51,656 nt of DNA, from IMG/VR virus record IMGVR_UViG_3300048893_000093, positions 1-51,656 of that record; one strand, 5' to 3'. The number at the start of each line of letters is the position of its first letter. Within the stretch, counting starts at the first letter, position 1. Source of the stretch: a virus (lineage: Duplodnaviria > Caudoviricetes). Shown one piece after another: positions 10,655 to 47,844 of this stretch. Under the pieces are notes generated by a model, which did not search any database, was not told where the DNA came from, and saw only the letters and a program-made list of their open reading frames with translations. The position numbers and the translations under genes are program-made.

Positions 10655-11583
10655 ACCATGAACGGCTATTTACACATAATACAAATTATATTATTTCAGA
10701 TATAATGTTTTTCGTTGATTTTAAAGTAAACTCATTTGCACGGTATCATACTGGGTAATTTGATTCGACCAGATAGCTTCCGTAGTCCTGAATTTTATTC
10801 CCTGCATCTCAACCATTGATTTAAACGGCATCCAATTAGCGTTAGTGTTTTCGCAAACAATAGTCTGCCCCAACCTTTCCTTGCACCAAGCCGTTAAATG
10901 GCTGTAATCAATGTTCTTATTGCTTTGGTTGTATTTGTGTCCTCCATGTTGATATGGCGGGTCAACAAACCATGTTGCCAACTCATTTGCCAAATCCTTG
11001 TAGCAACCGTGCTGAATAACCCAATGCCTTATTTTAAAGAGATTAGAGGCTATTAGTTTCAAGTTTTGTTTGTATGACTTAACACCCCACTCATAGGCTT
11101 TATTCCCGCCAACCGTCCCCTGTTGCAGCAAAAACCTTAGTAATTCGTATTGCTCAACACAATCCAAATCCTCCTTTATAATCCTATCGCCGGCTTTGTA
11201 ATTTGGAAATGATAACACATCTTTTTCGCTGCACTTTTGCAGGTACTTCCAAATATTAACAATGACCTCGTATTTATCAACCAACAAAATATCTCTGTCA
11301 AAATACTTCAAAGCATATCGGGCACTCCCCGCAAACGGCTCTATTATTTTCCCGTGCATAGGAGCAGGGTAATAATCAATAATCTTTGACTTGCTGCCGT
11401 AGTAACTAAACATTCTTTTTTACAATTTTCTTTAGAGCATCATTAAAGCTGATTCCCGCCACTTCCTGAATATCGGCAGCCATATCCATCAAAACGGATT
11501 TTAGCTGCTCTGTTTCTGCCTCTGTGAAGCTATACGCTATCTGTGTATCGCTTATTCCATAATCGCTGAGGTCGCTGAGGTCT
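10655..11583 (-). mobile_element. Accessory module 3 (inverted): GACCTCAGCGACCTCAGCGA - gene remnant - MTase - dif-like arm
   Basis: 11562-11583 reverse complement = AGACCTCAGCGACCTCAGCGAT; 10663-10691 reverse complement = ATATAATTTGTATTATGTGTAAATAGCCG. Confidence 0.5.
10721..11413 (-). CDS. DNA N6-adenine methyltransferase (Dam/D12-like)
   Basis: FSYYGSK, EPFAGSA (motif I) and FVDPPY (motif IV). Confidence 0.85.
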   Translation of the reverse strand: MFSYYGSKSKIIDYYPAPMHGKIIEPFAGSARYALKYFDRDILLVDKYEVIVNIWKYLQKCSEKDVLSFPNYKAGDRIIKEDLDCVEQYELLRFLLQQGTVGGNKAYEWGVKSYKQNLKLIASNLFKIRHWVIQHGCYKDLANELATWFVDPPYQHGGHKYNQSNKNIDYSHLTAWCKERLGQTIVCENTNANWMPFKSMVEMQGIKFRTTEAIWSNQITQYDTVQMSLL

Positions 11584-11870: not shown

Positions 11871-12890
11871 ATGGCAAAGGACATATTAATGTACGGTATA
11901 ATAGATAGTTGGTCAGTAGGCCAATTTATCAACGACATTGATGAGGTTCTTGAAGAAAATGAAAGCGCACCTATAACAGTTCGCGTTAATTCCCCTGGTG
12001 GCGACCCTGATTATGGATTCGGTGCCGTTGCAAAATTCGCTGAAATAAAAAACGAAAAGATTGTTCGCGTTGACGGTAAGGCTTATTCGACAGCTTTATA
12101 TTATTGTTGTTACACGGATAATGTCGTTGCGTTGGATGTTTCTGAATTCCTTTTGCACCGGGCCGCTTATGATGAATGGGTGGAATCGAATCCCGCTTAT
12201 TTCACGGATGCCAGAAAAGCCGGACTGGAAAATGCCAATAAAAAATTACGCGCTGCGTTTGAAGCAAAAGTAAACGTTCCATTATTTGAACAACTTTGCA
12301 AATGCACATTGGATGAGGTCTTTTCAATGGAAGGTCGTAAAGACGTATCGTTTAACGCTAAAATCGCAAAACGCATAGGTCTTATAAAAGAAATTATCCA
12401 AATCACGCCAACTAAAAAAGCCGAAATTGAAACATTGATGTTGAATGTTTCGGCCCTTCATAATGGATTCAAAATTGCGGCAAAAGCCGAAACAGAAGAT
12501 AAACCAAAAACCATGACAAAAGCAGAATTACAACTTAATCACGCGGCTGTTTACGCTGAAATATTTGAAGCAGGAAAAACTGCCGGTATAACTGAAATGA
12601 AGCAAATCGCTGAGGTATGGGCACATTACGCGCCTATTGATGCAAAGGCTTGTCAGGATGGAATTAAATCCGGCGTTATGCCGTCTCCTGTTCAGGTCAT
12701 TGAACTTGGCGAAAAGAAATTCAGTAAAAAATCGTTGAAAGAAATTGAGCATGGAAACGCTCCCGATACGCCAACACAGGAAGACAAAAATCTTTCAGCA
12801 AAAGAAAAAGAATTACAGGATTTCGTTTTGGGCGTTACCAAAAATTCAACTTTTTTGAGTGAAGCCGCTAAAAAACAACCTGTTAAATAA
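11871..12890 (+). CDS. ClpP-like head maturation protease with C-terminal scaffold
   Basis: VNSPGGD, DGKAYS and LLHRA motifs. Confidence 0.9.
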   Translation: MAKDILMYGIIDSWSVGQFINDIDEVLEENESAPITVRVNSPGGDPDYGFGAVAKFAEIKNEKIVRVDGKAYSTALYYCCYTDNVVALDVSEFLLHRAAYDEWVESNPAYFTDARKAGLENANKKLRAAFEAKVNVPLFEQLCKCTLDEVFSMEGRKDVSFNAKIAKRIGLIKEIIQITPTKKAEIETLMLNVSALHNGFKIAAKAETEDKPKTMTKAELQLNHAAVYAEIFEAGKTAGITEMKQIAEVWAHYAPIDAKACQDGIKSGVMPSPVQVIELGEKKFSKKSLKEIEHGNAPDTPTQEDKNLSAKEKELQDFVLGVTKNSTFLSEAAKKQPVK

Positions 12891-12932: not shown

Positions 12933-13379
12933 ATGAGCAACAATACGGTAACATTCAATAATGGTCAGCAATTACAGGTTAATACCAACCTTGCAAAATT
13001 ATTTCCGTTTGAAAGGGAGCAAAGACAGTATTTGCATACCAATTCAAAATACGATCCTGTTCCATTGGCCGCAGGGACTCTCATGGTTGTAAATAAAAGC
13101 ACTGGCAAGGTCGAGGAGTTTGATTCGACTATTCACACTGCCAATCAATATTATTTTTGCATCCTGGCTGATGATGCAATAATTGATGAAGGAGCAACTG
13201 AAAATGTCGCTATCGCTGTCTGTGGTACCAGGGTTCGCCAAGATATGATTGTATTTAATCATACCGGAGATTCTTTAAGTACAGTAGTTGGCGATTTGAG
13301 AATTTTTGAATGGCTGCTGACTTGCGGAATCATTCCAATATCAGCAGCCAACTGTACCAATTTTGATAACGCGATTTAA
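12933..13379 (+). CDS. Head decoration protein (lambda gpD-like)
   Basis: L.AGT.M and CILA.D motifs; between protease and capsid genes. Confidence 0.7.
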   Translation: MSNNTVTFNNGQQLQVNTNLAKLFPFEREQRQYLHTNSKYDPVPLAAGTLMVVNKSTGKVEEFDSTIHTANQYYFCILADDAIIDEGATENVAIAVCGTRVRQDMIVFNHTGDSLSTVVGDLRIFEWLLTCGIIPISAANCTNFDNAI

Positions 13380-13410: not shown

Positions 13411-14466
13411 ATGAATATATCAGTAACAGATGCTTTACCACTATTTACCAACACGATTGTTGCTAAATATTCTGACCATCAGAAACCAAAATCGTTTGGC
13501 AGATCGTTTTTTACCGAAGTGGAAACGAATAGTAAGCTGGCATCGCTTGTTTCGGAGCGCGGATTGAATTTGATTGCAAACGACATTCCACGTGGTCAGC
13601 GCGGTGAACTGAATGTGTTTGATAAAAGCACGCAGAACGTTGTATTCCCTCCTTTCTTCGATAAATTAATTAACCTTACCGATTTGGATGGTTATGATTA
13701 TTTGCACGTGGAAGGTGTAACTTCGCAAATTGCATGGGGACGTTTTCTGGACGACTTCGCAGCCAGAATGATGGTGTGTATGAATCAAATCGACCGCCGT
13801 TATGAATTGATGTGCTGGCAGGTTTTGGAAACTGGCATCATCCAGCTTTCATCAATGAAGAATATTTCATACGGCCGTAAAGCAGGATCACTGGTTAACG
13901 CATTGACTGTTGGTGGTTACTGGACTACCAACGGCGTTAATCCTGTAACAGGAACGCTTATGCGCGGTGCAGTTTGGAATAATGAAACCGGTAAGATGAA
14001 CGGTAATACATTGAATGTTATTTTCGGTTCTGAAGCATGGAGCGCGTGGGTGGCCAATAGCACAACAAAAGACAATGACCTGAAATTCAACAATAACCTT
14101 ACTGTGCTTGCAAAACAAGCCGTGAGGGATTCGACCGGTAAAACATTTTTGGGATCGACAACATACGATGCGTTCAATTTCAACTTTTTCACTTATTCAG
14201 ATTTTTACCAGGATGATGATGGAACAGTTCATAAGTTCGTGAATCCAAAAAAGGTTATCATTTTACCGGAAGAAACAGCAAACGTTCTAACATATTGCGC
14301 CGTGCCATTGCTTACAGAGCAGGGCGCAATGTTGAGCAAAGGAAAATTCAGCACTTATCGCGCATTGGATCAGTTCGCGCAGGCTGAATTCAGGGGCGTT
14401 CGTTCTGCCGGTATTCCTATTCAGGCAGCCGTTGACCAGGTATACACCGAACAGGTAGTTGCATAA
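13411..14466 (+). CDS. Major capsid protein, lambda gpE family
   Basis: PPFF and RR.E.MC.Q.L.TG.I motifs; size and synteny. Confidence 0.9.
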   Translation: MNISVTDALPLFTNTIVAKYSDHQKPKSFGRSFFTEVETNSKLASLVSERGLNLIANDIPRGQRGELNVFDKSTQNVVFPPFFDKLINLTDLDGYDYLHVEGVTSQIAWGRFLDDFAARMMVCMNQIDRRYELMCWQVLETGIIQLSSMKNISYGRKAGSLVNALTVGGYWTTNGVNPVTGTLMRGAVWNNETGKMNGNTLNVIFGSEAWSAWVANSTTKDNDLKFNNNLTVLAKQAVRDSTGKTFLGSTTYDAFNFNFFTYSDFYQDDDGTVHKFVNPKKVIILPEETANVLTYCAVPLLTEQGAMLSKGKFSTYRALDQFAQAEFRGVRSAGIPIQAAVDQVYTEQVVA

Positions 14467-14753
14467 TGAGGACTGGAACGGTTATAGTTACTGATATTGG
14501 CGGACTTGGAAAAAATATTTTCCATTATGGCGACAAGGTTAAAGAAGGGAATTTTCCGGTTGATAATTTTGACCGATTGGTGAAAGGTGGGTATATTGAG
14601 GAGGATGTGAATGAGACGGTACTAGCAATCACAGAACCAATCGAATCTGAACCAGAACAGACCGAAACTGAACCGGCAAATACAGAGACCGAAACAAAAG
14701 ACCCATTATCAAACATTGATTTTGGAGGTAATAAAAATAAAAAACGGCGTTAA
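14466..14753 (+). CDS. Capsid-associated packaging accessory protein (lambda gpFI position)
   Basis: Coupled to MCP stop; GD.V.E..F......L...G.I domain followed by acidic/Pro tail. Confidence 0.6.
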   Translation: MRTGTVIVTDIGGLGKNIFHYGDKVKEGNFPVDNFDRLVKGGYIEEDVNETVLAITEPIESEPEQTETEPANTETETKDPLSNIDFGGNKNKKRR

Positions 14754-14834: not shown

Positions 14835-15242
14835 ATGGGATTAAGCGAACAGGCTGCAATAGACGCTCAACAATTTTTGGAAAATACAGATGACTTCGGT
14901 ATTGAAATTATATTGACTTCGCCCACGTTTGAAATAGCAAATGTTACCGGTTATTCACGTAAACATCACACATCAGTTGACCCGGCAAACGGGCATGCGA
15001 TAAGCACGAAACAAGCAAGTGTAACCATTTCAGAAAAAACTATTACCGATGCAAATCCAAATTATCCGGTAAGAATAAATGATCCTGAAAATAAAAATTA
15101 CCAGGAAGTAAGCATGATTGGACATTTAATAGACGTGCCTGATAGCTCAGGTATAGTAAAAAATTACAAAGTTTTAAATCATTTTCCTGATGAAAAATTG
15201 GGATGGATAGTTTTTATTTTGGAGGATTATAAGTCCGCATAA
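14835..15242 (+). CDS. Head-tail adaptor / stopper (gpFII-like)
   Basis: D...F.....FG N-terminus; synteny. Confidence 0.55.
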   Translation: MGLSEQAAIDAQQFLENTDDFGIEIILTSPTFEIANVTGYSRKHHTSVDPANGHAISTKQASVTISEKTITDANPNYPVRINDPENKNYQEVSMIGHLIDVPDSSGIVKNYKVLNHFPDEKLGWIVFILEDYKSA

Positions 15243-15851
15243 ATGCAGCTGGTAAATTATAAAATAGAACCACAAAATTATGAACTGATACTTGAAAGGG
15301 TTGGGCAGATTCTTACACTTGAATTTGAAAACCAATTTATTCAATTTTATAATTCTATTTGTAGTGATGTTGCGGTTTACATTGAACATTTTGATCCGAC
15401 CAATTTCACTGAAATGTCGATAGTATCATTATCAATTGATAAAGGGACTTACGACAATAGACATGCCGGTTACGTCAGGGGAACTTACATTTATAACATT
15501 GATCTTTATACGAATTCAAAATCAATTGGCGATGACCGTGGCGATAAATTGTCTGCTGTAATTAATCATCGAATAGCAGGAATAATTCGTGCTATACTTG
15601 AAAACCCAATTTATAAAACACTTGGATTTGAACCCGGTTCAGTAGGTAACCTTCGTGTTAATTCAATTGAGTGGGGAAAGATAATGAAATCAAATCAGGA
15701 TGCACGTAATATTTATATGTCAAGAATTCAACTTGAATTCCAGGCACAAGAAACTACACCGTTGTTAACAGGCGTTCCATTACTTTCAATGATAACAAAA
15801 ATAAAATTAGAAAATTCAGATAACGGTTTACAATTTATAATTCAATCATGA
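15243..15851 (+). CDS. Tail terminator / neck protein
   Basis: Synteny; Y.YNID.Y...IRAIL pattern. Confidence 0.5.
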   Translation: MQLVNYKIEPQNYELILERVGQILTLEFENQFIQFYNSICSDVAVYIEHFDPTNFTEMSIVSLSIDKGTYDNRHAGYVRGTYIYNIDLYTNSKSIGDDRGDKLSAVINHRIAGIIRAILENPIYKTLGFEPGSVGNLRVNSIEWGKIMKSNQDARNIYMSRIQLEFQAQETTPLLTGVPLLSMITKIKLENSDNGLQFIIQS

Positions 15852-17353
15852 GCCAGCAGACAAGGGCACAGCTACAAGCATTAAGAGGATCACTAATTAA
15901 AAGTGGTAACAGGCAAACTACGGCTGTTGGTGTTAATACGGTGCTAGATGCTGTTATAGTATCGCTTATGAATATTTTAGATGACGCCAACAATGATGGG
16001 GGATTTCTTCAGATAAATTCCGGGCGCGTCGATATATCCAAAATAAATGCAGCTTCGCCGCAACAATATTTTTTAAGGGATGATGGGACGTGGCAGCCTG
16101 CGGAAAGCGGCGGTAAATACAACGTTTTGGATTGTGGGTTAATTGGCGATGGCATATTTGATAATACGGCGGCATTAAACACTCTTCTAAATACTACTGC
16201 TCCAAGCGGTTCTACTATTGTATTTCCACCAAGTCTTAATTTTCTTATTAGATCAAATATTGCTATTAACGGAAAACAATTTAATTTTATAGGAAATTTT
16301 TCAACAATTTCGACAGCTTCAAATGTACAAATATTCAATATTAGCAACGCTTCAAAGTGGAGATTCTCAAATTTAATTTTTAGCGGAAATAGTTCCGGTT
16401 CAAATCAATATGCTTTTTATTTTTCAGCGGCATCCGGATCATTTGCTTTTTACAATTGCACGTTTACCAATTTTGCAGGTGGCGGAGTGGCGATTAATAA
16501 TACCGAATCTTCCACATATTTAGGTGGTCTTTTTTCAAGTTGCAAGTTTTATGGAAATAACATTGCTGCTGATTTAAGTTTTACAAGACCGGAATATATA
16601 CAATTTATTGGTTGTGATATTTTTGATAACACTGGTGGAATAATTTGTGCTGGTGGAAATCTTATTGTTAACGGATGTAATATAACTTACAACGGCACTG
16701 GAATTGAGTTGTTAGCAGGCACAAACAATGGACACGGCATTATATCAAATAACAATATAAATCATAATACTACTTATAATTTATACATTCACAATACCGT
16801 TCTAGGTATGACAATTTCTAACAACCATTTTTACCAGGGAGAGATAAAAATAGCAAACACAACAGGAGTAAATATTTCAGGAGGTATAATCGATGTTAAT
16901 GCATATACCTTAACTACAAATGTGGGACTACTATTTTCAGGAGTTTCATTCGATACATCCTATTCAAATGTAGTTACATTAATTGGAACGGCTCCGCAAT
17001 TTAATTCATGTTACAACATAGATGGCACTTCAGCGGCTTGTCCGTCAAGTGGTAACGCGATAACATTTGATGCTGAAACGGTTGTATCTTCTGCCGCATC
17101 ATTAACAATGAAATCCCCAACGAGATATTTTATTTTTACTGGCTCGGCAAGTACATGGACATTATTTGCGCTTACTGAAGGTTTACTGAATAGACCAATA
17201 AATATCAAAAATAGAGGTTCTGGAAATATTACATTAAACACTTTTTCAGGTGGAAATGATATTTATAAAACATCGGCATTAAATACCCTGACAATAGGTC
17301 CAGGCTCATCTATGACACTTATATATGATGGAACATTTTTTAACGCGCCGTAA
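15848..17353 (+). CDS. Pectin-lyase-fold beta-helix spike / depolymerase
   Basis: FLRDDGTW anchor, NV.D.G..GDG..DNT.A motif, Asn/Ile/Gly-rich beta-helix rungs. Confidence 0.8.
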   Translation: MSQQTRAQLQALRGSLIKSGNRQTTAVGVNTVLDAVIVSLMNILDDANNDGGFLQINSGRVDISKINAASPQQYFLRDDGTWQPAESGGKYNVLDCGLIGDGIFDNTAALNTLLNTTAPSGSTIVFPPSLNFLIRSNIAINGKQFNFIGNFSTISTASNVQIFNISNASKWRFSNLIFSGNSSGSNQYAFYFSAASGSFAFYNCTFTNFAGGGVAINNTESSTYLGGLFSSCKFYGNNIAADLSFTRPEYIQFIGCDIFDNTGGIICAGGNLIVNGCNITYNGTGIELLAGTNNGHGIISNNNINHNTTYNLYIHNTVLGMTISNNHFYQGEIKIANTTGVNISGGIIDVNAYTLTTNVGLLFSGVSFDTSYSNVVTLIGTAPQFNSCYNIDGTSAACPSSGNAITFDAETVVSSAASLTMKSPTRYFIFTGSASTWTLFALTEGLLNRPINIKNRGSGNITLNTFSGGNDIYKTSALNTLTIGPGSSMTLIYDGTFFNAP

Positions 17354-27419: not shown

Positions 27420-27830
27420 ATGGATCATCGTATCGGAATTATGAAAACAATCCAAGATATAAACAACGAAATTGCATCAATCCAAAACGGCATTGAGCAA
27501 TTGAATGATGCTGCGCCAAACGAGATGCTTCTGTTTTCTGAGATGAAACAAAAATCCATTACAACACGAAATAAAAATAAAATCGCTGATCGAATAGAAT
27601 TTCTTTTGGCAGTTCGGCAAATATTGGAGATCAAACCATCAGAAGACTATTTGAAAGGCGAAATTTCACGGCTCAAAACACTCATTGCAAACTTATCGCA
27701 AATAACCGTTCCGCGCGATTTTTATCCAAAAGATTTTTCTGGAAACGCTATATTTTATTTTAATAAAAAAATGGGTATAACTGAAATGCGACAACAAATA
27801 AGAAATATTGAATTTATACTTGGGATATGA
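27420..27830 (+). CDS. Hypothetical protein
   Basis: 136-aa helical ORF (start may be 27441). Confidence 0.55.
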   Translation: MDHRIGIMKTIQDINNEIASIQNGIEQLNDAAPNEMLLFSEMKQKSITTRNKNKIADRIEFLLAVRQILEIKPSEDYLKGEISRLKTLIANLSQITVPRDFYPKDFSGNAIFYFNKKMGITEMRQQIRNIEFILGI

Positions 27831-28975
27831 CCGACACACAACGAAACATTTGGCTTCTACGAATACAGGATTTTGCAAACATCCTTTTGGATTTGCCGTT
27901 AGATGAAAGAATAGAAATGCTCAACGAGGCGAGGTTAATTTTACATTCAACTTCGCCTTTTAAAGCAGAGCCGGTGGATTATGTGAAGTGGGTATTAGCA
28001 GAAACTGTAACGGCAAATGATTATAATCCTAACAAGGTCGCCCCTCCTGAAATGGAATTATTGGAAATTTCTATTATGAATGATGGCTTTACACAACCAG
28101 TAGTGACATTTCCTAATAATGGGAAAATTGAAGTGGTAGATGGCTTTCATAGAACGCGTGTATGTAAAGAATCTAAAATAGTTAAACAGCGCGTTATCGG
28201 TTATACGCCAACCGTTATAATTCGTAAAGAACAAAGTGATAAGAATGATCGCATCGCTTCAACCATCCGTCACAATCGTGCCCGTGGCAAACATCAAATT
28301 GACGCAATGAGTGAAATTGTTTTGGAATTGAAAAACCGTAATTGGAAAAATGAAAGAATTGCCCGTGAACTTGGAATGGATGAGGAAGAAATATTACGGT
28401 TATGCCAAATAACAGGTTTAGCAGAAATATTCAAAGATGATGACTTTTCAAAATCATGGGAAGCCTCAGATTCGATTGCAAATTACGAGCCATTAACAGA
28501 TGAATTAAACCAGGATGAGGTTGAACATTATCGAACAAGCAATACAAATGATCCTGACCGAATATTCCACACATTTGATAAATGGGAATGTCATAAAGCG
28601 GGATTCTACGCTAGTTCAAGATCAGGATTAACAGCAGATCAATGCGAGAAAATGTATGCTTCATTCCTGGGTGATAATAACCAATTCAGGGAGGGTTTGG
28701 AAGGTGTTCTCCGATCATGGCCCAACTCATGCGAACATTATCTGACTAATAAGGCTATGAACCGAATTGCTTGGTTAGGTCAAGCTGCTGTATGTTATAG
28801 CACTGGAATACCAAGTAAATTTTGTTCTGCTTGGACACTCTTAACAGAGCAACAACAAAACAATGCAAATGAATTGGCGCTAATTTATTTAAACAAATGG
28901 ATGGTATCGCATAACCGCGAACCAATCAGTATGGAAGATGCTTTATCAATTGGAAGACAAGTAAATATTTATTGA
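27827..28975 (+). CDS. ibrB: IbrB-like ParB/Srx-domain protein with extra C-terminal domain
   Basis: ANDYNPN.VAPPEM.LL..SI..DGFTQP, VDGFHR, ASTIRHNRARGKH. Confidence 0.8.
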   Translation: MTDTQRNIWLLRIQDFANILLDLPLDERIEMLNEARLILHSTSPFKAEPVDYVKWVLAETVTANDYNPNKVAPPEMELLEISIMNDGFTQPVVTFPNNGKIEVVDGFHRTRVCKESKIVKQRVIGYTPTVIIRKEQSDKNDRIASTIRHNRARGKHQIDAMSEIVLELKNRNWKNERIARELGMDEEEILRLCQITGLAEIFKDDDFSKSWEASDSIANYEPLTDELNQDEVEHYRTSNTNDPDRIFHTFDKWECHKAGFYASSRSGLTADQCEKMYASFLGDNNQFREGLEGVLRSWPNSCEHYLTNKAMNRIAWLGQAAVCYSTGIPSKFCSAWTLLTEQQQNNANELALIYLNKWMVSHNREPISMEDALSIGRQVNIY

Positions 28976-28976
28976 C

Positions 28977-29675
28977 ATGGCAACTAAACTCTATCATACA
29001 ACAAAATCCGTTCTTACCGCTTCAAAAGAGCGCATATCAGCCACTTTCGATAATTTCCAACGAATTTATATTTCTTTCAGTGGCGGCAAAGATAGTTCCG
29101 TTATGACACATTTAATATTGCAGGAAGCGCGTAAAAGAGGTAGGCAAGTTGGGTTATTGATTATTGATCTTGAGGCGCAATATAATGATACAATCACACA
29201 TATAGAACAAATGGTCGCCATGTACCAGGATATTATCGAATTACATTGGGTGTGTGCCGAATTGTTATTACGAAATGCCGTATCAAATTATCAACCTCGC
29301 TGGATTTGTTGGGATAAAGAAAAACAAGATGTTTGGGTGCGACCAATGCCCTCTCGGTGCGCTGACCTAAACCAGTACGATTTTTACCAACCTAAAATGG
29401 AATTTGAAGAGTTTATGGTATTGTTTGGCGAATGGTATTCACGCGGAATAAATACCGTTGCGTTTATTGGCATACGCGCCGATGAATCACTGCATCGTTA
29501 CCGGGCAATCACTTCACGAAAAGATGGATTAATGTTTAATAATTGGAAATGGTCTACTAAAATAGCCGCGAAATTATTTAATATTTATCCGATTTACGAT
29601 TGGCGCACAGAAGATATTTGGGTGTTTCATGGTAAATTTCGTGAGCTGCCACATAATAAAATTTATGATAAATGA
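28977..29675 (+). CDS. ibrA: IbrA-like PAPS-reductase family protein, N-terminal part
   Basis: SFSGGKDS, GIRADES..R and YPIYDW motifs. Confidence 0.8.
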   Translation: MATKLYHTTKSVLTASKERISATFDNFQRIYISFSGGKDSSVMTHLILQEARKRGRQVGLLIIDLEAQYNDTITHIEQMVAMYQDIIELHWVCAELLLRNAVSNYQPRWICWDKEKQDVWVRPMPSRCADLNQYDFYQPKMEFEEFMVLFGEWYSRGINTVAFIGIRADESLHRYRAITSRKDGLMFNNWKWSTKIAAKLFNIYPIYDWRTEDIWVFHGKFRELPHNKIYDK

Positions 29676-30187
29676 TGATGGCAGGTGTAAAAATATCACA
29701 ACAGCGATTGTGTCAGCCATACGGAGATGACCAGCGCAGAGGATTATGGTTATATCATATATTGGAACCTGAAACATGGTATAAACTCGTATCGCGTGTT
29801 AATGGCGTAAATTCTGGTGCGCTCTATATTCAAGAAACAGGTAATATGACAGGGTATAATAAAATTACTAAACCTAACGGTCATACGTGGCAATCATTTT
29901 GCAATCTACTTTTATCAACAATGCCATGTCGCACCAGTTCGCATTATAAGGAACGGTTTAAAAAATTTATTAAAGGTTGGCAAGATAGGGGTTACCTCAA
30001 AATACCCGACGAAGCGCCGGAAGATTTAGAATCAAAATGTTGGGTACCATCATGGCGAAGATTATGCAAGGTGATTCTACGTAATGACTATTGGTGCAAA
30101 GGGCTTGGACAAGTTCAACCATTTTCAGAGGCTTACGGAAAATTTAAAGACATTAAAAAGAAACGTGAGATTGAAGCTAAATTATAA
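29672..30187 (+). CDS. IbrA-like protein, C-terminal part (DUF3440)
   Basis: QRLCQPYG, EPETW..L..RV.G.N.G and PSWRR.CK..L.NDYW. Confidence 0.75.
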   Translation: MMMAGVKISQQRLCQPYGDDQRRGLWLYHILEPETWYKLVSRVNGVNSGALYIQETGNMTGYNKITKPNGHTWQSFCNLLLSTMPCRTSSHYKERFKKFIKGWQDRGYLKIPDEAPEDLESKCWVPSWRRLCKVILRNDYWCKGLGQVQPFSEAYGKFKDIKKKREIEAKL

Positions 30188-40387: not shown

Positions 40388-41077
40388 TTAGAGGGCCACC
40401 GGCTTGTTGAAATAATTAACATAAAACTCAAAACTTTCAGGATCGCATATCCGGCGCAGCAATTGCAAGTCTTTATCTGGCCCACCGTGAATATCGTATC
40501 TTTCAAGCCTGGAAGTATGCATATCGCCACCGGTTAACCCTATTCCATGCTTAATACCTAGGCAAATATGCTGTTTTGGGGCAAAATTGACCAATTTTAG
40601 GCGCTTTCCATCAGCATGTTTTGCTATGTCAGATAGGTGTGTATCCAAATATGGCTCGTGATCCGGCGGCCAATTGAAGCTCATATCGGGCCGAATCAAT
40701 GTTGACATGGCGCAAGTTCGGCGCGGATGACCCATTTCAAAGTAAGAAAAGATACGAATATTATAATAAATTGTGTAAGAAGTGGAGAAAAGTTCGGGTT
40801 TTCCAGCATTTTCCCAGGATTTTATCATTGTTTCTAGGTAATTTGGAGCATACCAGTCATCATCCTCCCAGAAAGCAATAACATCTAATCCACGACCGCG
40901 CAAATATTCATAACCGCGCCGGTAACGCTGCGTTATATCTTTGTTGGTGGATTCCGGTGGGTAATCCATGAAAAGAATAATGTCCGGCTGAATTGTTTGC
41001 AATTTTATCAGCCGTTCACATTGTTTTCGGAATAACGGACGGTCGCCGCGTGTTGGGATTAGGATAGCGAGTTTCAA
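40388..41077 (-). CDS. Glycosyltransferase, GT-A / GT2-like
   Basis: ILIPTRGDRP, WEDDDWY; paralogue of 45052-45891. Confidence 0.8.
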   Translation of the reverse strand: MKLAILIPTRGDRPLFRKQCERLIKLQTIQPDIILFMDYPPESTNKDITQRYRRGYEYLRGRGLDVIAFWEDDDWYAPNYLETMIKSWENAGKPELFSTSYTIYYNIRIFSYFEMGHPRRTCAMSTLIRPDMSFNWPPDHEPYLDTHLSDIAKHADGKRLKLVNFAPKQHICLGIKHGIGLTGGDMHTSRLERYDIHGGPDKDLQLLRRICDPESFEFYVNYFNKPVAL

Positions 41078-41162
41078 TTCATTCCAATTTTAAAAACAAA
41101 AACAATATCAATTCCGCGATGAGCGAAAACAAAAGAAGGGTATATGACGGGAATGAAATACA

Positions 41163-41813
41163 TCACTGCTTCGCGGGCACATCCCATTTATCAGGTGAAA
41201 ATTCAGGTGGATTTAATATGCGGGTTCCTCTCCCAGGATGAAAAATAAAATCTGAGAAAGGAACGTTGATGCAAAAAAATCGGTGCGGACTGGTTTCAAG
41301 TTGCGTCATCGTATTAATACATGGCGCGCCGTGATTTATAAAAGCTGGCAATAAAATGTATTTCATTTTATCTATCAGCGCAAAATGTGGATGCAAATAA
41401 CGAATACCGTCTTTGTCAACGTTACCGCCATCATTATTTACCATCACAACTCTGCCAACTCCAAAACATTTATCCCGGTTACCATCCATCAGGATAGCCA
41501 TGTATTCTATTATGCCGTGACGGCGTATAATTACATCGGAATCAATTAAAAGGAAGTAGCGCGTCTTACAAAATCCAATTCCTAAATTCATTCCTGGCCC
41601 ATGCCCGATATTTTGACGATAATTTTTAACGAGCGTGATGTCATCGCGTAAGGTTTGCGTATAAGTAAAACAGTCGTTGGTTTCATCACTACCATCAATG
41701 ATAATTATTTTCAACTTAGGATACTCAAGTCGGATAGATTCAACGCAAGAACGAAGTATATCTGCGGTGTTGTAAGAAACAATTATAGCGGTTATGTTGT
41801 CGGTCATCTCCAA
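41163..41813 (-). CDS. Glycosyltransferase family 2
   Basis: IIVSYN, IIDGS, NIGHG.G.N and LIDSD. Confidence 0.85.
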   Translation of the reverse strand: MEMTDNITAIIVSYNTADILRSCVESIRLEYPKLKIIIIDGSDETNDCFTYTQTLRDDITLVKNYRQNIGHGPGMNLGIGFCKTRYFLLIDSDVIIRRHGIIEYMAILMDGNRDKCFGVGRVVMVNNDGGNVDKDGIRYLHPHFALIDKMKYILLPAFINHGAPCINTMTQLETSPHRFFCINVPFSDFIFHPGRGTRILNPPEFSPDKWDVPAKQ

Positions 41814-42772
41814 TACCTCCCAAAAATACTCAATAAATATTTACCTGTCGCCTCAAAACTGTGCTTTTCTGTTACCCAATTATAAGTATCGGTTTGATGC
41901 CGTGAAATTTCAGCCGGGGATAATTCCAATAGATGCGAAACGTTATCAATGAATCTTTGTTCGGTATTACAAACGAAAAACGGGCAAATTCTTTCAGTCG
42001 GATGCGTTCCTTTGCGCGGCGATCCGTATGCCGATTCGTAAACATCCAAATTTATATTTTGCGTAACCACAATTTTACCAGCCGCCGCCGCTTCAAAAGC
42101 AGTAACACCCCAGCAACCGTATGGTTTACCGTTTAATTCCGGTTTAAATAACTCAATATAAATATCATAATTATTCATCCTGGTAAGTTGTTCTGTGTGA
42201 GAAACACGATCATTTGAGTGCATAAGCGTGAATGGCTGTTTTACCTTTCCCAACATTTCCAGTATTTTTTCAGTTCCTTTCACTTCCGGGTTACTTGGAA
42301 AATGACCAATCGCATAAGGAGCATGAATTTCGTGCCCGAATTTTGGCGTACCGTTCATTTCAAATGGAGCAGCAAAATAATGAATATTTTTTGCGCCAAG
42401 TTGCATAAATTCACACTCATCAGTAAGAGTGAATTTGACGCGCGGATTAAAAACGGCGTTATGTGCTTCCGGTGCGCGCCTGTATGCTGATCCGGTATAT
42501 CCTACGCAAATCGTGCGGTTACCTATCACACTTTCCAATTCATTCAATAGCCAAATTTCACCGTGAGTTAAAATAATGAGTGAATCTGTTGGCGAAGACG
42601 AAATGACGCGGCGCAATCCATCTATTGTAGTGTGTGTACTGGTTTCTGCATACCCAAATGGGTGCGGTGTAATATAATATGATGAAGCATCGGCACCGGC
42701 AGCGCGGAGGGATTTACAAATGTTGAATTCCAAATTGGCCCAATCCGATATGCAGCATAGGATTATTTTCAT
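41804..42772 (-). CDS. Glycosyltransferase, GT-B (GT4-like)
   Basis: H.PSNP..KGT, DIYIE and G...FEAAAAGK.VV. Confidence 0.75.
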   Translation of the reverse strand: MKIILCCISDWANLEFNICKSLRAAGADASSYYITPHPFGYAETSTHTTIDGLRRVISSSPTDSLIILTHGEIWLLNELESVIGNRTICVGYTGSAYRRAPEAHNAVFNPRVKFTLTDECEFMQLGAKNIHYFAAPFEMNGTPKFGHEIHAPYAIGHFPSNPEVKGTEKILEMLGKVKQPFTLMHSNDRVSHTEQLTRMNNYDIYIELFKPELNGKPYGCWGVTAFEAAAAGKIVVTQNINLDVYESAYGSPRKGTHPTERICPFFVCNTEQRFIDNVSHLLELSPAEISRHQTDTYNWVTEKHSFEATGKYLLSIFGRYWR

Positions 42773-43542
42773 AATTCAGTAATTAACGGTTTCGATTTTC
42801 GCTTCGTGATCTCCCCCAGAACCTTATTTTTATATTCCTGCCCCAACCTTCGTTGCGTTCCATTCGGTAAATTTTGATTGTACAAATATATGGGTTCCCG
42901 GATTATTCCAATGCGTTTTTTACCACACATTTCTAAACATGAAAACATAACCTCGCTTTCCGTGGTCGTATCTATCCAATTGCCGTTAATTAAAAAATCA
43001 CAGATTGGTATTTGTCTAAATAATTCTATCCTGAATGTATTTGGTGCGGTGGAACGGTATGGTACGGTGCGATACGCGCGCGTCTCATGTATCTCGTCCG
43101 GGAAATCCAATTCAAAATCCACCGGCAACATTTTACCGTATTGATTAATCCAATTACCATACGTCATCCATTTGCCATTTTGATATTCGCGGCAAATTCT
43201 ATTCAGTGCGCATGGTAAAAGTTCGTCATCCAATCCAACAAATATCACCACATCATTATCCTGACCATAAGTCGAAATAGCAGCATGGCGACAAAAAGCA
43301 GCCCCGTGATTTTGCTTATACGACATGGTTTGAAATAGATGTTTGAACCTTGGATTGTTGTGAATAAAAGTTTCGTAAAATTGATTTATTTCTGAAAGTG
43401 TATTATCGGTGCTGGCATCGTCGATGACAATAATTTTTATTTTACCGTTATCGTAATGCTGGTTTACGATGGATTTTAAGCACGGGAATACGTAGGGCGC
43501 ACAATTGTAGCCGCTCACCACAATTATAAAATTAATCTTCAT
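42769..43542 (-). CDS. Glycosyltransferase family 2
   Basis: GYN, IDDASTD, GLDD, WMTYG. Confidence 0.88.
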   Translation of the reverse strand: MKINFIIVVSGYNCAPYVFPCLKSIVNQHYDNGKIKIIVIDDASTDNTLSEINQFYETFIHNNPRFKHLFQTMSYKQNHGAAFCRHAAISTYGQDNDVVIFVGLDDELLPCALNRICREYQNGKWMTYGNWINQYGKMLPVDFELDFPDEIHETRAYRTVPYRSTAPNTFRIELFRQIPICDFLINGNWIDTTTESEVMFSCLEMCGKKRIGIIREPIYLYNQNLPNGTQRRLGQEYKNKVLGEITKRKSKPLITEL

Positions 43543-43581
43543 ACGGCTTATATGTCATTAAAATTAATATTATGATGAAAA

Positions 43582-44325
43582 TTACAAGCATTCCAACGGT
43601 TTTTTCGGTTCTAATCCCTTCACAAATGCCAACTCCGAATCCCTCTGTTCCTGCGTGAACCTGCGCGTTATTGCTAACGGATTCATATTATTGTATTCGT
43701 AAATAACATCCAGTATCGGCACTATGTGATCTTTTCCAGCCAATTCCATTAAGCAATAAAGCATATTAATGTCGGGATAAATTGTTTTTTGCTTAGGAAA
43801 TAAATCAGCATCGGTTAAGTGATAATATAATTCTTTTCTGAATGATCGCAAATGAATAAATTTCCAATCCTGGTGCCGGGCCGGTTTATCTTCGTATTTA
43901 ATTGTATTCTCATCAAAACAAACCTGGCCCGTATCTTTAATAATGTAATTGCCGTATGTTAGCCAGCAATCGGAGGATTGATAAGCGAGATTAAGTGTTT
44001 CAAGCGCGTTTGGCAATAAGCGGTCGTCGAGGTCGAGCCATACGATAACGTCGAAATTAATAGTGTGATTTATTCTTTTTAGCGCATCGTGTCTGCATTT
44101 CACAATACCTTTATTTCTGAATTCGTATTCGGCACACCATTTTAAATCTTTTGTAGCTCTCAAATATTTTTGAATAACATCCCTGCTATTATCAGAACTT
44201 GCATCATCTATAACGATTAACTCAAAATTCCTATAAGTTTGCGCCTCAATCGAAGTTAAACAATCTTCAACGTATTTTTCGACGTTGTAACCGCTTGCCA
44301 AAATAAGAAATTTTACTTCCACCAT
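43582..44325 (-). CDS. Glycosyltransferase family 2
   Basis: Probable start 44325; GYN.EKY, IDDASSD, LDLDD, WLTYG; paralogue of 42769-43542. Confidence 0.88.
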   Translation of the reverse strand: MVEVKFLILASGYNVEKYVEDCLTSIEAQTYRNFELIVIDDASSDNSRDVIQKYLRATKDLKWCAEYEFRNKGIVKCRHDALKRINHTINFDVIVWLDLDDRLLPNALETLNLAYQSSDCWLTYGNYIIKDTGQVCFDENTIKYEDKPARHQDWKFIHLRSFRKELYYHLTDADLFPKQKTIYPDINMLYCLMELAGKDHIVPILDVIYEYNNMNPLAITRRFTQEQRDSELAFVKGLEPKKPLECL

Positions 44326-44439
44326 AATAAAACTACTATAACCGTTATCCAAAAAACTGCAATTACCGCGCCAATAAATAAGCACCCATTACGCGCGTCT
44401 TTATCCCATTTTATATTATGTTCGTCGAATGGCATTGTA

Positions 44440-45039
44440 CTATTCGGGTTTGCCGCGTGAAACCTTTCCGGTTTCACACATTATTACATCGTGCCAATAT
44501 ACACTTGCGCCACTTTCCCAAACCGCATCAATGAATGCGAAGTCACCGCATCTAGCAACTCCAAACTTATGAATAAATTTTTCATAAATTTCTCGCTTGA
44601 CAACAAAACAGCTACCTCCAATTCTTGCAATAATAGGCTTTTTACCCCAACATAATTCATCAGTAGGATATAAATTCCCTGGTATTTGATTTATTTTGAT
44701 AATCATTCTGAAAAAAATAACGTCTGGGTTATGCTGATCGGCAACCGCCTTTAATTCAGTTGTCATTTCAGGATTTATAATTTTATCATCGTCATCCAAA
44801 AGGAAAACATATTTACCTGTAACTAACGCGCGGGTTTCTTTATCCGAAAAAGATTGGTTCGCTCTGAGTAATCCAATCCCGATAGTATCAGTAATAAAAA
44901 TTTGCTCAATATCTTTATCTGTTAACGAATCAATGGAAAGTAAATTTTCAGCTAATCCCTGCGGGCGTTTATAAACCCTCGTAATTATTGATAGAAAAGG
45001 GTCGGATGAATATGATTTTTTGGTGTAGGTTAAATTCAT
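44440..45039 (-). CDS. Glycosyltransferase, GT-A / GT2-like
   Basis: LSIITR..KRP, GKYVFLLDDDD, GDF.FI. Confidence 0.75.
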   Translation of the reverse strand: MNLTYTKKSYSSDPFLSIITRVYKRPQGLAENLLSIDSLTDKDIEQIFITDTIGIGLLRANQSFSDKETRALVTGKYVFLLDDDDKIINPEMTTELKAVADQHNPDVIFFRMIIKINQIPGNLYPTDELCWGKKPIIARIGGSCFVVKREIYEKFIHKFGVARCGDFAFIDAVWESGASVYWHDVIMCETGKVSRGKPE

Positions 45040-45051
45040 AAATCATCATTT

Positions 45052-45891
45052 TTAAAATCTGCTATTAATTTTTCGACTTGTATGTTTATCACCACTCATT
45101 ACTAACGATTCATAAAACTCCGCACCATCCCCGCAAACTCCGCGCAACCAACTTCCATCTGCATCCACCTTATTATAATGCGCATTATCTTCGTTATGCG
45201 CCCCCCCCGCAACCATTCCGGTATTATGTTTTATTCCGATACAAATATGTTTTGCTGGTATCCAGGTTTTTCCAGGGTATTTCCAAAGTGCAGCGTCTAA
45301 GTAAGCATCATTGTCTTTGGGCCATTTTAAATCCATAATTTTGCGCGTAACCATTGTACTCATTGCGCTGGCCTTGCTTCGATGGGCCAATACCATATAA
45401 CGGCGTGAAAAGATATGATAATAAACAGTTTGACCTATCCCGAAAAGTGATGGTCGACCTATGCGCATCCATTCACCAATCATTAATTCGATATATTCTG
45501 GCGAATACCAATCGTCATCCTCCCAGAAAATAATTACATCGCAACCCAACGCGAATAATCGCTCACATCCAATTCGATAACGGTACGTAACGTCTATATC
45601 TTCGCTTAATGGAAGGTCTGAAATAATTTCAACGTGATCTGGTTGTCTTGTTTGAGCATTAATAAGTGAAAGCGCCTGCTCTAAAAATACCGGCCTGTTC
45701 CCGCGCGTAGGTATCAATACGCCGATTTTAAAATTTAATTTTACAGGTTTTAATCGTTTCAAATGACCGCGATTCGCCAAATCTTCGGCGCGACCTGGCG
45801 TGAAATGAGATTCATTTACAAGATCACCAGTTTTGAAAATTTTATTTCCCGATCCAGAAACGGCACATGATATTACTTTGTATTCTATCAT
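45052..45891 (-). CDS. Glycosyltransferase GT2-like with N-terminal domain homologous to the post-MCP protein
   Basis: VLIPTRGNRP, WEDDDWY; residues 1-47 align with the 14466-14753 protein. Confidence 0.8.
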   Translation of the reverse strand: MIEYKVISCAVSGSGNKIFKTGDLVNESHFTPGRAEDLANRGHLKRLKPVKLNFKIGVLIPTRGNRPVFLEQALSLINAQTRQPDHVEIISDLPLSEDIDVTYRYRIGCERLFALGCDVIIFWEDDDWYSPEYIELMIGEWMRIGRPSLFGIGQTVYYHIFSRRYMVLAHRSKASAMSTMVTRKIMDLKWPKDNDAYLDAALWKYPGKTWIPAKHICIGIKHNTGMVAGGAHNEDNAHYNKVDADGSWLRGVCGDGAEFYESLVMSGDKHTSRKINSRF

Positions 45892-46247
45892 GTCGTAGCA
45901 ATCCCTTTCTTTTCCTTCGCTTCATTCGCCAACTTTTCAAAATGATCGACGTATAATTTCACCCCGCCATCACCATCTTTTTGGTAAATATCAATTAAAT
46001 TAACCTGGTGATTAATGAGTAATGGCTTTTTACCTTTTTCGATTTGTTTTGTATATGACGGGCCAACCCCTTTTATTTCTGACAGTTGAAAATCTTTTGT
46101 TCCGATAAATTTCGCAACCGGTTCAAATCTCAATTTACCAGTTTTATCCACTTGCTGAAACTTCGCCAGCCGCGCACAAATAGCTAAAATATTTTTATAT
46201 GCTTGCGGCGTTAATTTAAAACGATTCGGTTTATTTTTATTCGGCAT
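45888..46247 (-). CDS. Hypothetical basic protein, first gene of GT operon
   Basis: 119-aa ORF; ATG just downstream of TACATTTG box; ATGA overlap with GT. Confidence 0.6.
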   Translation of the reverse strand: MPNKNKPNRFKLTPQAYKNILAICARLAKFQQVDKTGKLRFEPVAKFIGTKDFQLSEIKGVGPSYTKQIEKGKKPLLINHQVNLIDIYQKDGDGGVKLYVDHFEKLANEAKEKKGIATT

Positions 46248-46338: not shown

Positions 46339-47844
46339 ATGTCGGCAGTTGGATCAAACAATGTAGCGTCAATAGTTGGTTACCAACTCTCTGTTTTACT
46401 TCAAAATTCAACTTCAAATTTACCACAGCGTGTAGCCGTTCTTTGCGAGGCAAACCACGCCAATCAGGATAGTTTAGATGTTTCGGAATGGGAAGCCACA
46501 TCGTTAAAAGCAGTTGGTCTGCGTTATGGTTTTGGTTCACCGGCATATCAGATTGCCAGGATAATGATGCCGATTTTAAACGGTATTCCTTTAGTTTTTT
46601 ATCCACAATCCGAAGCAGCCGGGGCAACTGCAAAAGTTTATGAAATAACTCCCGTTGGTACAGCGACTTCCAGCGCAACCCACACTATAAAAATTGATGG
46701 GCGCGATGGATTGGATGCGCAATTTTACAATATCACAATTAACCAGGGGGATTCATCCGACCAAATAACTGATAAAATTACCGATGCCGTAAATTCAGTA
46801 TTGGGTGCGCCAATGTCGGCCACTGATACAGATTACGTAAATACTTTCACATCAAAATGGAGAGGTGAAACTGCAAACGCTTTAACTGTTAGCGTCGATA
46901 CCAACGGAAACGATGCCGGGATTACATATATCATTAACAGCATCCAAAATGGTGCTGGCGTTCCATCAATAGCCGATGCACTTGCTTTGATGGAACCCAA
47001 ATGGAATACAATCGGCATAAATTCTTACGGAACAAATACAACTATTTGCAGCGCGCTTGAAGCATGGACAGGTATTCCTGATCCGGATGCACCAACTGGC
47101 CGTTATATTGGAATTGTAATGAAACCGATTATCTGGCTTACCGGTTCTGTTGATGAAGATCCGTCATCATTTACTGACCCGCGTAAGGCCCAGGTTGCTA
47201 TATCAATTTCACCTGCTCCGCTTGGTTTGATTTTACCGATGGAAGTAGCAGCAAGCGATGGCGGTACATGGGCAGTTATCGCACAGGATAATCCGGCATT
47301 GGATGTTCTGAATAAGCGCCTTGTTGATATTCCGGCACCTACATTGATCGGCGTAATGTCAAATTACAATGACCGCGATAGAATTGTGAAAAAAGGATGT
47401 TCCACCGTTGATCTGATAAATGGAAATTATGTAATGAAAGACCCTATTACAACTTTCCATCCCGATGGTGACCTTCGCCCAGCATGGAGATGGCGCAGGG
47501 ATTTGATGGTTGATTTCAATGTGAGGTTTCGTTATAAAGTTCTTGAAGATATTTTTGTTGTTGGTAAAATTATTGCCAATGATTCAGATTCAGTTCAAAA
47601 CGGCGAAATAATTAAACCAAAAGACTGGAAGCAAATTTTAATTACTTCTTTCTTTGCAGGGTTAGTTTCGGACGGACTGATTGCTGATTTGGATTTTTCA
47701 GTTGCATCTTTGCAAGTTTCAATTGACCAAAATAATCCAAACCGTTTCAATACATTTTTCAGGTATAAAAAAACAGGCATTGCCAGGATTTCAGCAACAG
47801 AAGCTGAATCAGGCGTTAATTTAGGAACACCGGTAAGTATATAA
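46339..47844 (+). CDS. Tail sheath protein (Mu gpL-like)
   Basis: LPQR.A, YGFGSP, KKGCSTV, D.ITT.HP, NPNR. Confidence 0.9.
   Translation: MSAVGSNNVASIVGYQLSVLLQNSTSNLPQRVAVLCEANHANQDSLDVSEWEATSLKAVGLRYGFGSPAYQIARIMMPILNGIPLVFYPQSEAAGATAKVYEITPVGTATSSATHTIKIDGRDGLDAQFYNITINQGDSSDQITDKITDAVNSVLGAPMSATDTDYVNTFTSKWRGETANALTVSVDTNGNDAGITYIINSIQNGAGVPSIADALALMEPKWNTIGINSYGTNTTICSALEAWTGIPDPDAPTGRYIGIVMKPIIWLTGSVDEDPSSFTDPRKAQVAISISPAPLGLILPMEVAASDGGTWAVIAQDNPALDVLNKRLVDIPAPTLIGVMSNYNDRDRIVKKGCSTVDLINGNYVMKDPITTFHPDGDLRPAWRWRRDLMVDFNVRFRYKVLEDIFVVGKIIANDSDSVQNGEIIKPKDWKQILITSFFAGLVSDGLIADLDFSVASLQVSIDQNNPNRFNTFFRYKKTGIARISATEAESGVNLGTPVSI

Follow-up and report, generated by a model that had tools for sequence, protein, structure and literature searches.

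A domain shared by a phage glycosyltransferase and the small protein encoded after the major capsid gene, a candidate capsid-docking module

Glycosylation of phage virions by phage-encoded enzymes has been recognised just recently. The mycobacteriophage glycosyltransferases (GTs) Che8 gp110, Corndog gp38 and those of Myrna modify the capsid and tail tube proteins of their own phages, and this glycosylation shields the particles from antibodies (PMC12363180). Lambda gpFI is described as a bridge between the capsid and the terminase-DNA complex (PMC13595911) that probably works by way of the major head protein (PMC7889075). The virus genome analysed here, IMG/VR record IMGVR_UViG_3300048893_000093 (Caudoviricetes; complete, 51,656 bp with direct terminal repeats; this whole stretch is called the window), encodes a putative GT of 279 aa (45052-45891, minus strand; referred to as the GT), whose N-terminal domain is also found at the start of a 95-aa protein (14466-14753, plus strand; the small protein) encoded directly after the gene of the major capsid protein (MCP). 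In the reading that we prefer, and to which we give an even chance, the GT begins with a copy of the first domain of the small head protein, and this copy binds the MCP and holds the GT on the capsid. Modification of the virion by phage-encoded GTs, as in the mycobacteriophages, is also what we propose for the gene cassette in which the GT lies, and the mycobacteriophage case is to our knowledge the only described example of such a role. No targeting domain is described for the mycobacteriophage enzymes in the literature searched, outside which key primary papers and supplements lie, and it contains neither a description of how virion-glycosylating enzymes find the capsid nor one of a capsid-targeting domain on virion-glycosylating phage GTs. 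Phage virion glycosylation as such is already known, and docking by a shared domain is plausible.

A shared domain in the GT and the small protein

A preliminary description of the window had aligned the N-terminus of the GT without gaps to the small protein, and this alignment is indeed the optimal local one, pairing GT residues 6-45 with small-protein residues 6-45 (13/40 identities, no gaps, BLOSUM62 raw score 56). Shuffling the first 50 residues of the small protein gave a mean score of 21.2 (sd 4.3), and the score of 56 was reached by 1 of 5000 such shuffles and by 0/2000 full-length shuffles. BLASTP of the GT against the small protein left the alignment unreported, which Smith-Waterman with shuffles and the profiles did find. 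A hidden Markov model (HMM) built from four foreign GT N-termini, the window GT being left out, placed the small protein first after the GT among 825 six-frame open reading frames (ORFs), with E 2.3e-4 and the next ORF at 1.6. Along positions 1-47 of an HMM from 13 N-termini, taken exclusively from GTs and with no small protein among them, the small protein matched with 34.6 bits (E 5.5e-10), and the ORF ranked next had E 0.42. The lead of the small protein over the other ORFs is wide with both GT-only profiles, so that the two copies are homologous, and by their sequences GT residues 1-48 (45748-45891, minus strand) and small-protein residues 1-47 (14466-14606, plus strand) are one shared domain. 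The profiles thus lend the alignment independent support. The paralogous GT of the same cassette (40388-41077, minus strand, 229 aa) aligns with GT residues 55-273 alone (42% identity, E 1e-54), and as this alignment begins at residue 55, GT residues 1-54 are extra. Neither the paralog, which had been said correctly to lack the extension, nor the orthologous GT of the closest relative carries the domain, and it is therefore an added module, just as the preliminary description had it. (Records are labelled P for proteins, L for viral loci and G for records of related viruses; the closest relative is G011, whose MCP is 57% identical to that of the window.)

GT residues 1-48 match positions 1-47 of the 127 of phrog_6286 (E 0.0015; 3.6e-4 in the genome search), and no other place in the genome matches this family. 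The small proteins of related viruses match it as well (E 2.1e-7, 1.8e-6 and 1.3e-5) and, by these matches, form phrog_6286, a family without known function. The small protein of the window has no match to the phrog_6286 HMM at E<=10 and is tied to the family via the GT-derived profiles alone. No Pfam family was found for either domain segment at E<=10, single-sequence word-indexed protein searches returned nothing beyond the window's own proteins, and in a phage GenBank collection there was no match for the small protein (tblastn) or for 8 kb of the window (blastn), while the GT gave only chance rows (tblastn, E>=0.3). A recent duplication or co-evolution of the copies within one genome had been suspected from a shared 'KLKAL' and an insertion in G002; a test on five genomes led us to reject it.

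The small protein is closely linked to the capsid gene. A scan of viral contigs with a 12-row MCP alignment confirmed 173 relatives, from which 80 loci were kept; the same scan with the single MCP sequence confirmed none. In 68/80 loci the ORF immediately downstream of the MCP gene carries the domain (GT-only profile, E<=0.01), and no domain match was found elsewhere in the 80 loci, with up to 2.5 kb on each side covered. Among the other 12, eight pass straight to the next head gene, one has a divergent look-alike and three stay without a clear call. The eight (L112, L115, L122, L155, L156, L157, L159, L174) lack the small gene, and a homolog of 14835-15242 follows their MCP gene directly. The domain ORF also lies directly after the MCP gene in 12/12 records inspected by hand.

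In its layout the small protein begins with the domain, which an acidic linker, very different in length from case to case, joins in the relatives to a C-terminal helical motif with a sub-threshold match to Pfam HeH (E 3.4e-4) and weak matches to PHROG 'Arc-like' entries. The proteins of the window and of G011 share this layout with a basic tail in place of the helical motif; in the window, the linker is acidic and rich in T, E and P and ends in a short basic tail (GGNKNKKRR; 14607-14753, plus strand). A single-sequence AlphaFold2 (AF2) model of the small protein has a predicted local distance difference test value (pLDDT) of 56, shows no confident structure past residue 46 and, being poor, was used for the order of secondary structure alone. 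Linker length differs even between close relatives, as P0162 and P0163 (relatives of the small protein of G003; L096 1-249) carry a 32-residue linker unit repeated two or four times and are otherwise identical.

The fusion of the domain to GTs is not restricted to the window. The domain is carried by four of the best 150 GT-family representatives (P0003, P0005, P0007, P0008), in which the match starts at residue 2-4. When viral contigs were scanned with the GT alignment, 205 relatives were confirmed and 79 loci kept, nine of which hold one firm domain-GT ORF each. A tenth, L023, is marginal (E 0.061 with an independent profile, missed in the genome profile search), and its copy is 64% identical to that of L032. 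The search for the fusion in other phages, which the preliminary description had asked for, thus found it. There is one domain copy per cassette, N-terminal in every case. Three kinds of protein body carry the domain: that of the window GT (L002, L047, P0003, P0005, P0007, P0008), a second with the pattern 'WKRPE...GSDD...YFYD' (L054, L056, L072, L046, L076, L032, L023), whose match to Glycos_transf_2 is below the cut-off (E 5.4e-4), and a third (L025, which is P0156), which has no family match and which we call GT-like solely on the grounds of its sequence pattern and because it lies in a GT locus. BLASTP among the three kinds found no similarity outside the domain. The domain hence appears on three putative GT catalytic parts without BLASTP likeness to each other, and this recurrence of the fusion is new. 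A word-indexed search of longer proteins with the domain profile returned 21 proteins, all of them fusions or small proteins of 108-291 aa; since this search scored 8000 candidates alone, there may be other partner proteins. Ten records underlie the fusion loci, and five of them (G002, G003, G004, G010 and the window) hold a second copy of the domain in a small ORF right after the MCP homolog. Among 25 further GT-bearing records, seven have the domain, in the ORF right after the MCP gene and never on the GT. Some other GTs of the family, such as P0076, P0122 and P0152, start with another extension, about 60 residues long ('...TDELA..FLKK.P.Y.KYF'), which may be a second kind of added module; neither these extensions nor those of further GT relatives match the domain HMM.

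Fold and predicted partner of the domain

An AF2 model from a 14-row alignment of the domain has a pLDDT of 87.5 and the order strand-strand-strand-strand-helix-strand. An exhaustive structure aligner, run against 48,161 chains, ranked GINS B-domains highest (9moj_B, Z 5.5, root-mean-square deviation (rmsd) 1.9 A over 47 residues; 5ghr_B, Z 5.1), followed by the N-domains of ribosomal protein L9 (Z about 4.2), the C-terminal domain of lambda gpFI (2lsm, rank 8, Z 4.1, rmsd 2.2 A over 44 residues), which is a weak match tied with other small-domain folds, and YqbF (2hjq, Z 4.0, rmsd 3.8 A over 50 residues), which is weak too; a Z under 8 may reflect a common arrangement only. Foldseek found nothing in the PDB at E<=1e-3, its best rows being the Gins51 B-domain (E 0.14, probability 0.91) and YqbF 2hjq (probability 0.77), and a profile search of PDB sequences with the domain gave a best E of 0.36. 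In BFVD many small uncharacterised phage proteins resemble the domain (best E 1.4e-3, TM score 0.77), with one DUF7210-named protein at rank 46. Atlas structure searches with both window proteins returned a viral cluster of like description (103 aa, 95 members), probably the same one for both, as well as clusters with DUF7210 (TM 0.41 and 0.66 by query), clusters with HeH or SAP, and Gins51_C clusters. Another Atlas cluster, of 446 aa, is labelled 'capsid protein family' (100% of its members carry Phage_capsid), and a stretch of it aligns structurally to GT residues 1-53 (TM 0.65 by query); the modelled fold may be fused to a capsid protein in some phages.

Compared with lambda gpFI, the small protein is likewise encoded right after a gpE-family capsid gene in a lambda-like head module and likewise consists of two parts joined by a disordered linker. 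The model of its domain superposes on residues 82-132 of 2lsm; gpFI probably acts via the head protein, and the domain is predicted to bind the MCP. The C-terminal domain of gpFI is reportedly its head-binding part (work of Popovic et al. from 2012). In contrast to gpFI, the domain stands N-terminally here and not C-terminally, there is no sequence similarity, and the Packaging_FI HMM (PF14000) has no match in the window at E<=10; we know of no fusion of gpFI to an enzyme. YqbF of a Bacillus subtilis prophage (2HJQ) and DUF7210 proteins resemble the small proteins in that a HeH/SAP-like end comes after a small beta-rich domain at the N-terminus, and yqbF presumably follows the capsid gene in its prophage as well. 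However, the Pfam HMMs YqbF (PF14553), DUF7210 (PF23843) and FluMu_N (PF17891) have no match in the window at E<=10 either, nor by hmmscan of both domain segments. The GINS B-domain and the L9 N-domain, which are the best structural matches, belong to cellular replication and translation proteins without sequence similarity, so that the likeness is at the level of the fold only. The same gene position, a similar fold, the disordered linker and the probable DNA-binding end together lead us to read the small protein as an analogue of gpFI. The comparison with gpFI made in the preliminary description therefore holds for the gene position in a lambda-like head module and, weakly, for the fold, but not for homology in sequence.

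For the predicted binding we modelled a complex of the MCP (alignment A4) with the domain (alignment A3, the first row being residues 1-54 of the window GT). The model reached a score of 0.69 (runs 0.59, 0.69, 0.69) compared with 0.00 for the best of three controls; the mark used for such scores was reached by 58/80 solved complexes and 2/110 mismatched pairs, counts which apply only roughly here, since our own alignments were used. At least 97% of contacts are shared between the runs, and the partner has a pLDDT of at least 81. On the MCP, contacts are predicted for residues 140-166, 281 and 346-348 (nt 13828-13908, 14251-14253 and 14446-14454), and on the domain for residues 7-10, 12, 15-16, 18, 21 and 41-43. 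Modelling of the GT domain with the MCP had been named as a check of the docking claim, and the model, having passed its controls, supports binding between domain and MCP. The predicted MCP site coincides with the most conserved block of the MCP. Among PDB sequences the MCP profile has 3bqw as its sole match (E 3.8e-5), which gave no placement of the site on the shell.

Capsid docking and its alternatives

According to the preferred reading, the domain would bind the major capsid protein, and the small protein would be a functional analogue of lambda gpFI, which connects DNA or terminase with the capsid. In the fusion, the domain would hold the enzyme via a linker of about 8 residues on procapsids or capsids, and the seven-gene GT cassette would act on a virion protein; with about 8 residues between the domain and the catalytic core, the enzyme would sit near the shell. 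Capsid docking is supported by the modelling and by the gene order. A wider claim is that phage GTs with three different catalytic parts have repeatedly acquired a portable domain that binds the capsid in the manner of gpFI and serves as a (pro)capsid address tag, with a bolder variant in which it loads the enzyme into the head; we hold this claim tentatively, at somewhat less than an even chance.

Several observations weigh against docking. The orthologous GT of G011 (49% identical, reciprocal best) starts at the catalytic core in a syntenic cassette, and G011 keeps a small protein after its MCP. Since this GT does without the domain although its cassette is syntenic, the domain is no obligatory part of such an enzyme, and to this extent the docking claim of the preliminary description, otherwise favoured by the gene order and the complex model, has to be limited. 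Moreover, an N-terminal extension is absent from 125/146 GT representatives that could be aligned, and at least 8/80 MCP loci lack the small gene; since some relatives do without the small gene and most GTs without an extension, both copies are accessory and neither is essential. The predicted site on the MCP could be an assembly interface and thus be buried in the real shell, and within the domain conservation is no higher at the predicted contacts than at the remaining residues (mean entropy 2.08 vs 1.97). The two copies of a genome are not closer to each other than to those of other genomes (30.2% identity within and 30.4% between genomes, five genomes), and of 120 permutations 36 (for the score) and 61 did as well as the observed pairing, so that there is no covariation within genomes. 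The structural matches are all weak (Z 4-5.5); they cover the whole 47-residue fold and prove no function, and the fold is also present in proteins that bind RNA or parts of the replisome. The lack of Pfam matches described above counts on the same side, and finally, glycosylation of a virion protein, and of the capsid as the purpose of the cassette, is what we infer and not what was observed.

The presence of the fold in such proteins leads to the strongest of the alternatives, namely that the domain is a general small binding module of the L9-N or GINS-B type, which on the GT binds DNA, RNA or a protein of the cassette, while the cassette modifies DNA or host glycans. The best fold matches, GINS B-domains and the L9 N-domain, are indeed binders of replisome proteins and rRNA, the HeH-like motif at the end of the relatives' small proteins is probably DNA-binding (HeH again below the cut-off), and DNA-glycosylating phage GTs are known (PMC13326640; bioRxiv 10.1101/2023.12.21.572611). 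However, model searches of the complete genome found neither a Tet/JBP dioxygenase nor a C5 cytosine methyltransferase, the absence of which weakens DNA as the target without removing it, the domain gene is tied to the MCP gene in 68/80 loci, and the complex model with the MCP passed while its controls scored 0.00. We therefore regard the general module as unlikely, though as the alternative to be taken most seriously.

As the small protein carries the same domain, the domain of the GT might also pair with it, and the acidic Ser/Thr linker of the small protein would then be the acceptor of the glycan. This would suit the Thr-rich linker of the window protein and the differences in linker length with the tandem repeats in P0162 and P0163, as one would expect of exposed and possibly decorated segments, and all 5/5 records in which both regions are visible hold the fusion together with the small protein, one of these fusions being marginal. 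The linkers of several relatives, however, are rich in Lys/Glu/Pro or Asp/Val with few Ser/Thr, and the two copies do not covary within genomes. We regard pairing as about half as probable as the general module.

A still smaller chance is left for the domain being an encapsidation tag on the inner face of the shell, by which the small protein, with its probably DNA-binding end, and the GT would come to lie inside the head, so that the next host would receive the GT. The MCP site is predicted on the strands after the spine helix and on the C-terminal strand, and the sheet that carries it may face inward in the HK97 fold. Contact with packaged DNA would be in keeping with the HeH-like or basic ends. 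Yet no precedent for a packaged GT was found, and gpFI, which is the closest functional analogue, is described as bridging the capsid and the terminase-DNA complex (PMC13595911). That the fusion is a neutral by-product of module recombination without a function of its own would fit the domain-free ortholog in G011 and the many GT-family members without N-terminal extension, but is very improbable, as the domain is intact with its conserved residues on three catalytic parts without BLASTP likeness, is kept in cluster representatives just 42-51% identical overall, and always occurs as a single N-terminal copy per cassette.

Cassette, head module and implications

The cassette (40388-46247, minus strand) starts with a 119-aa protein without Pfam or PHROG match (45888-46247), the stop of which overlaps the start of the GT by 4 nt and which has an ortholog of 45% identity at the equal position in G011. 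Seven genes follow, three of them clear GT2, three weaker GT-A-like, including the GT and its paralog, and one without family. Past the domain, the GT consists of the short linker and a GT-A-type catalytic part (residues 49-279, 45052-45747) with an EDDD motif, the acidic DXD-type motif reading WEDDDWY. Its match to Pfam Glycos_transf_2 (PF00535) is 15.9 bits, under the cut-off of 23.3, and that of the paralog 18.0 bits; among the fused forms, P0157 matches Glycos_transf_2 at E 9.2e-8 and P0008 is named glycosyltransferase in its source. With the GT as query, a full HMMER search retrieved 945 cluster representatives (E<=1e-3). The preliminary description had called the GT the initiating enzyme, for which nothing was found in support. 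The paralog has an ortholog of 55.5% identity in G011. The clear GT2 genes lie at 41163-41813, 42769-43542 and 43582-44385 (Glycos_transf_2 E 1.1e-13, 2.5e-13 and 5.7e-17, respectively) and the 322-aa protein without family at 41804-42772; the domain HMMs find no copy of the domain in these four genes (41163-44385). Directly downstream of the GT, a GT2-like gene codes for 199 aa (44440-45039, Glycos_transf_2 E 5.7e-4, below the cut-off). The two are separate genes here (44440-45891) and in G011 and form one protein of 456-487 aa in P0005, P0007, P0008, L002 (9989-11386) and L047 (3229-4647), where the GT2-like part joins the C-terminus of the GT, which is a Rosetta-stone hint that the two enzymes cooperate.

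The head module is lambda-like by its family matches. It comprises a portal of the lambda family (8919-10619), a ClpP-like protease (11871-12890), a weak gpD-like match (12933-13379) and the MCP of the gpE family (13411-14466, plus strand; Pfam Phage_cap_E E 2e-12, phrog_29 E 2.3e-19), whose stop shares 1 nt with the start of the small protein by the coordinates. A Dam-like N6-adenine methyltransferase is encoded at 10721-11413 (minus strand). Two proteins of 501 aa are equal in length with unrelated sequences: that at 15848-17353 (plus strand) has a right-handed beta-helix and a weak depolymerase match at the C-terminus and is probably a tailspike, and that at 46339-47844 (plus strand) has no family, precedes a small protein and the tape-measure gene and by gene order sits where a tail sheath or tube gene would be expected. 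Furthermore, a ParB_N-like protein (sub-threshold), a PAPS-reductase-domain protein and a DUF3440 protein follow each other at 27827-30187 (plus strand), an order which we take to recall IbrA/IbrB-type pairs.

If the wider claim of a repeatedly captured address tag is true, no targeting mechanism for virion glycosylation would have been described before this one, and it would be a case of natural recruitment of an enzyme to the phage shell by a module of 48 residues. Should these 48 residues suffice, they would explain how soluble GTs act on the assembling shell. Docking would also give a first function to very common unannotated genes beside capsid genes, namely those of phrog_6286 and perhaps of the YqbF or DUF7210 type, for which no function was found in the literature searched, and the module would serve as a compact tag with which phage capsids could be decorated or loaded. 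The idea behind gpFI, a capsid-binding accessory protein, would then widen from DNA packaging to the recruitment of enzymes.

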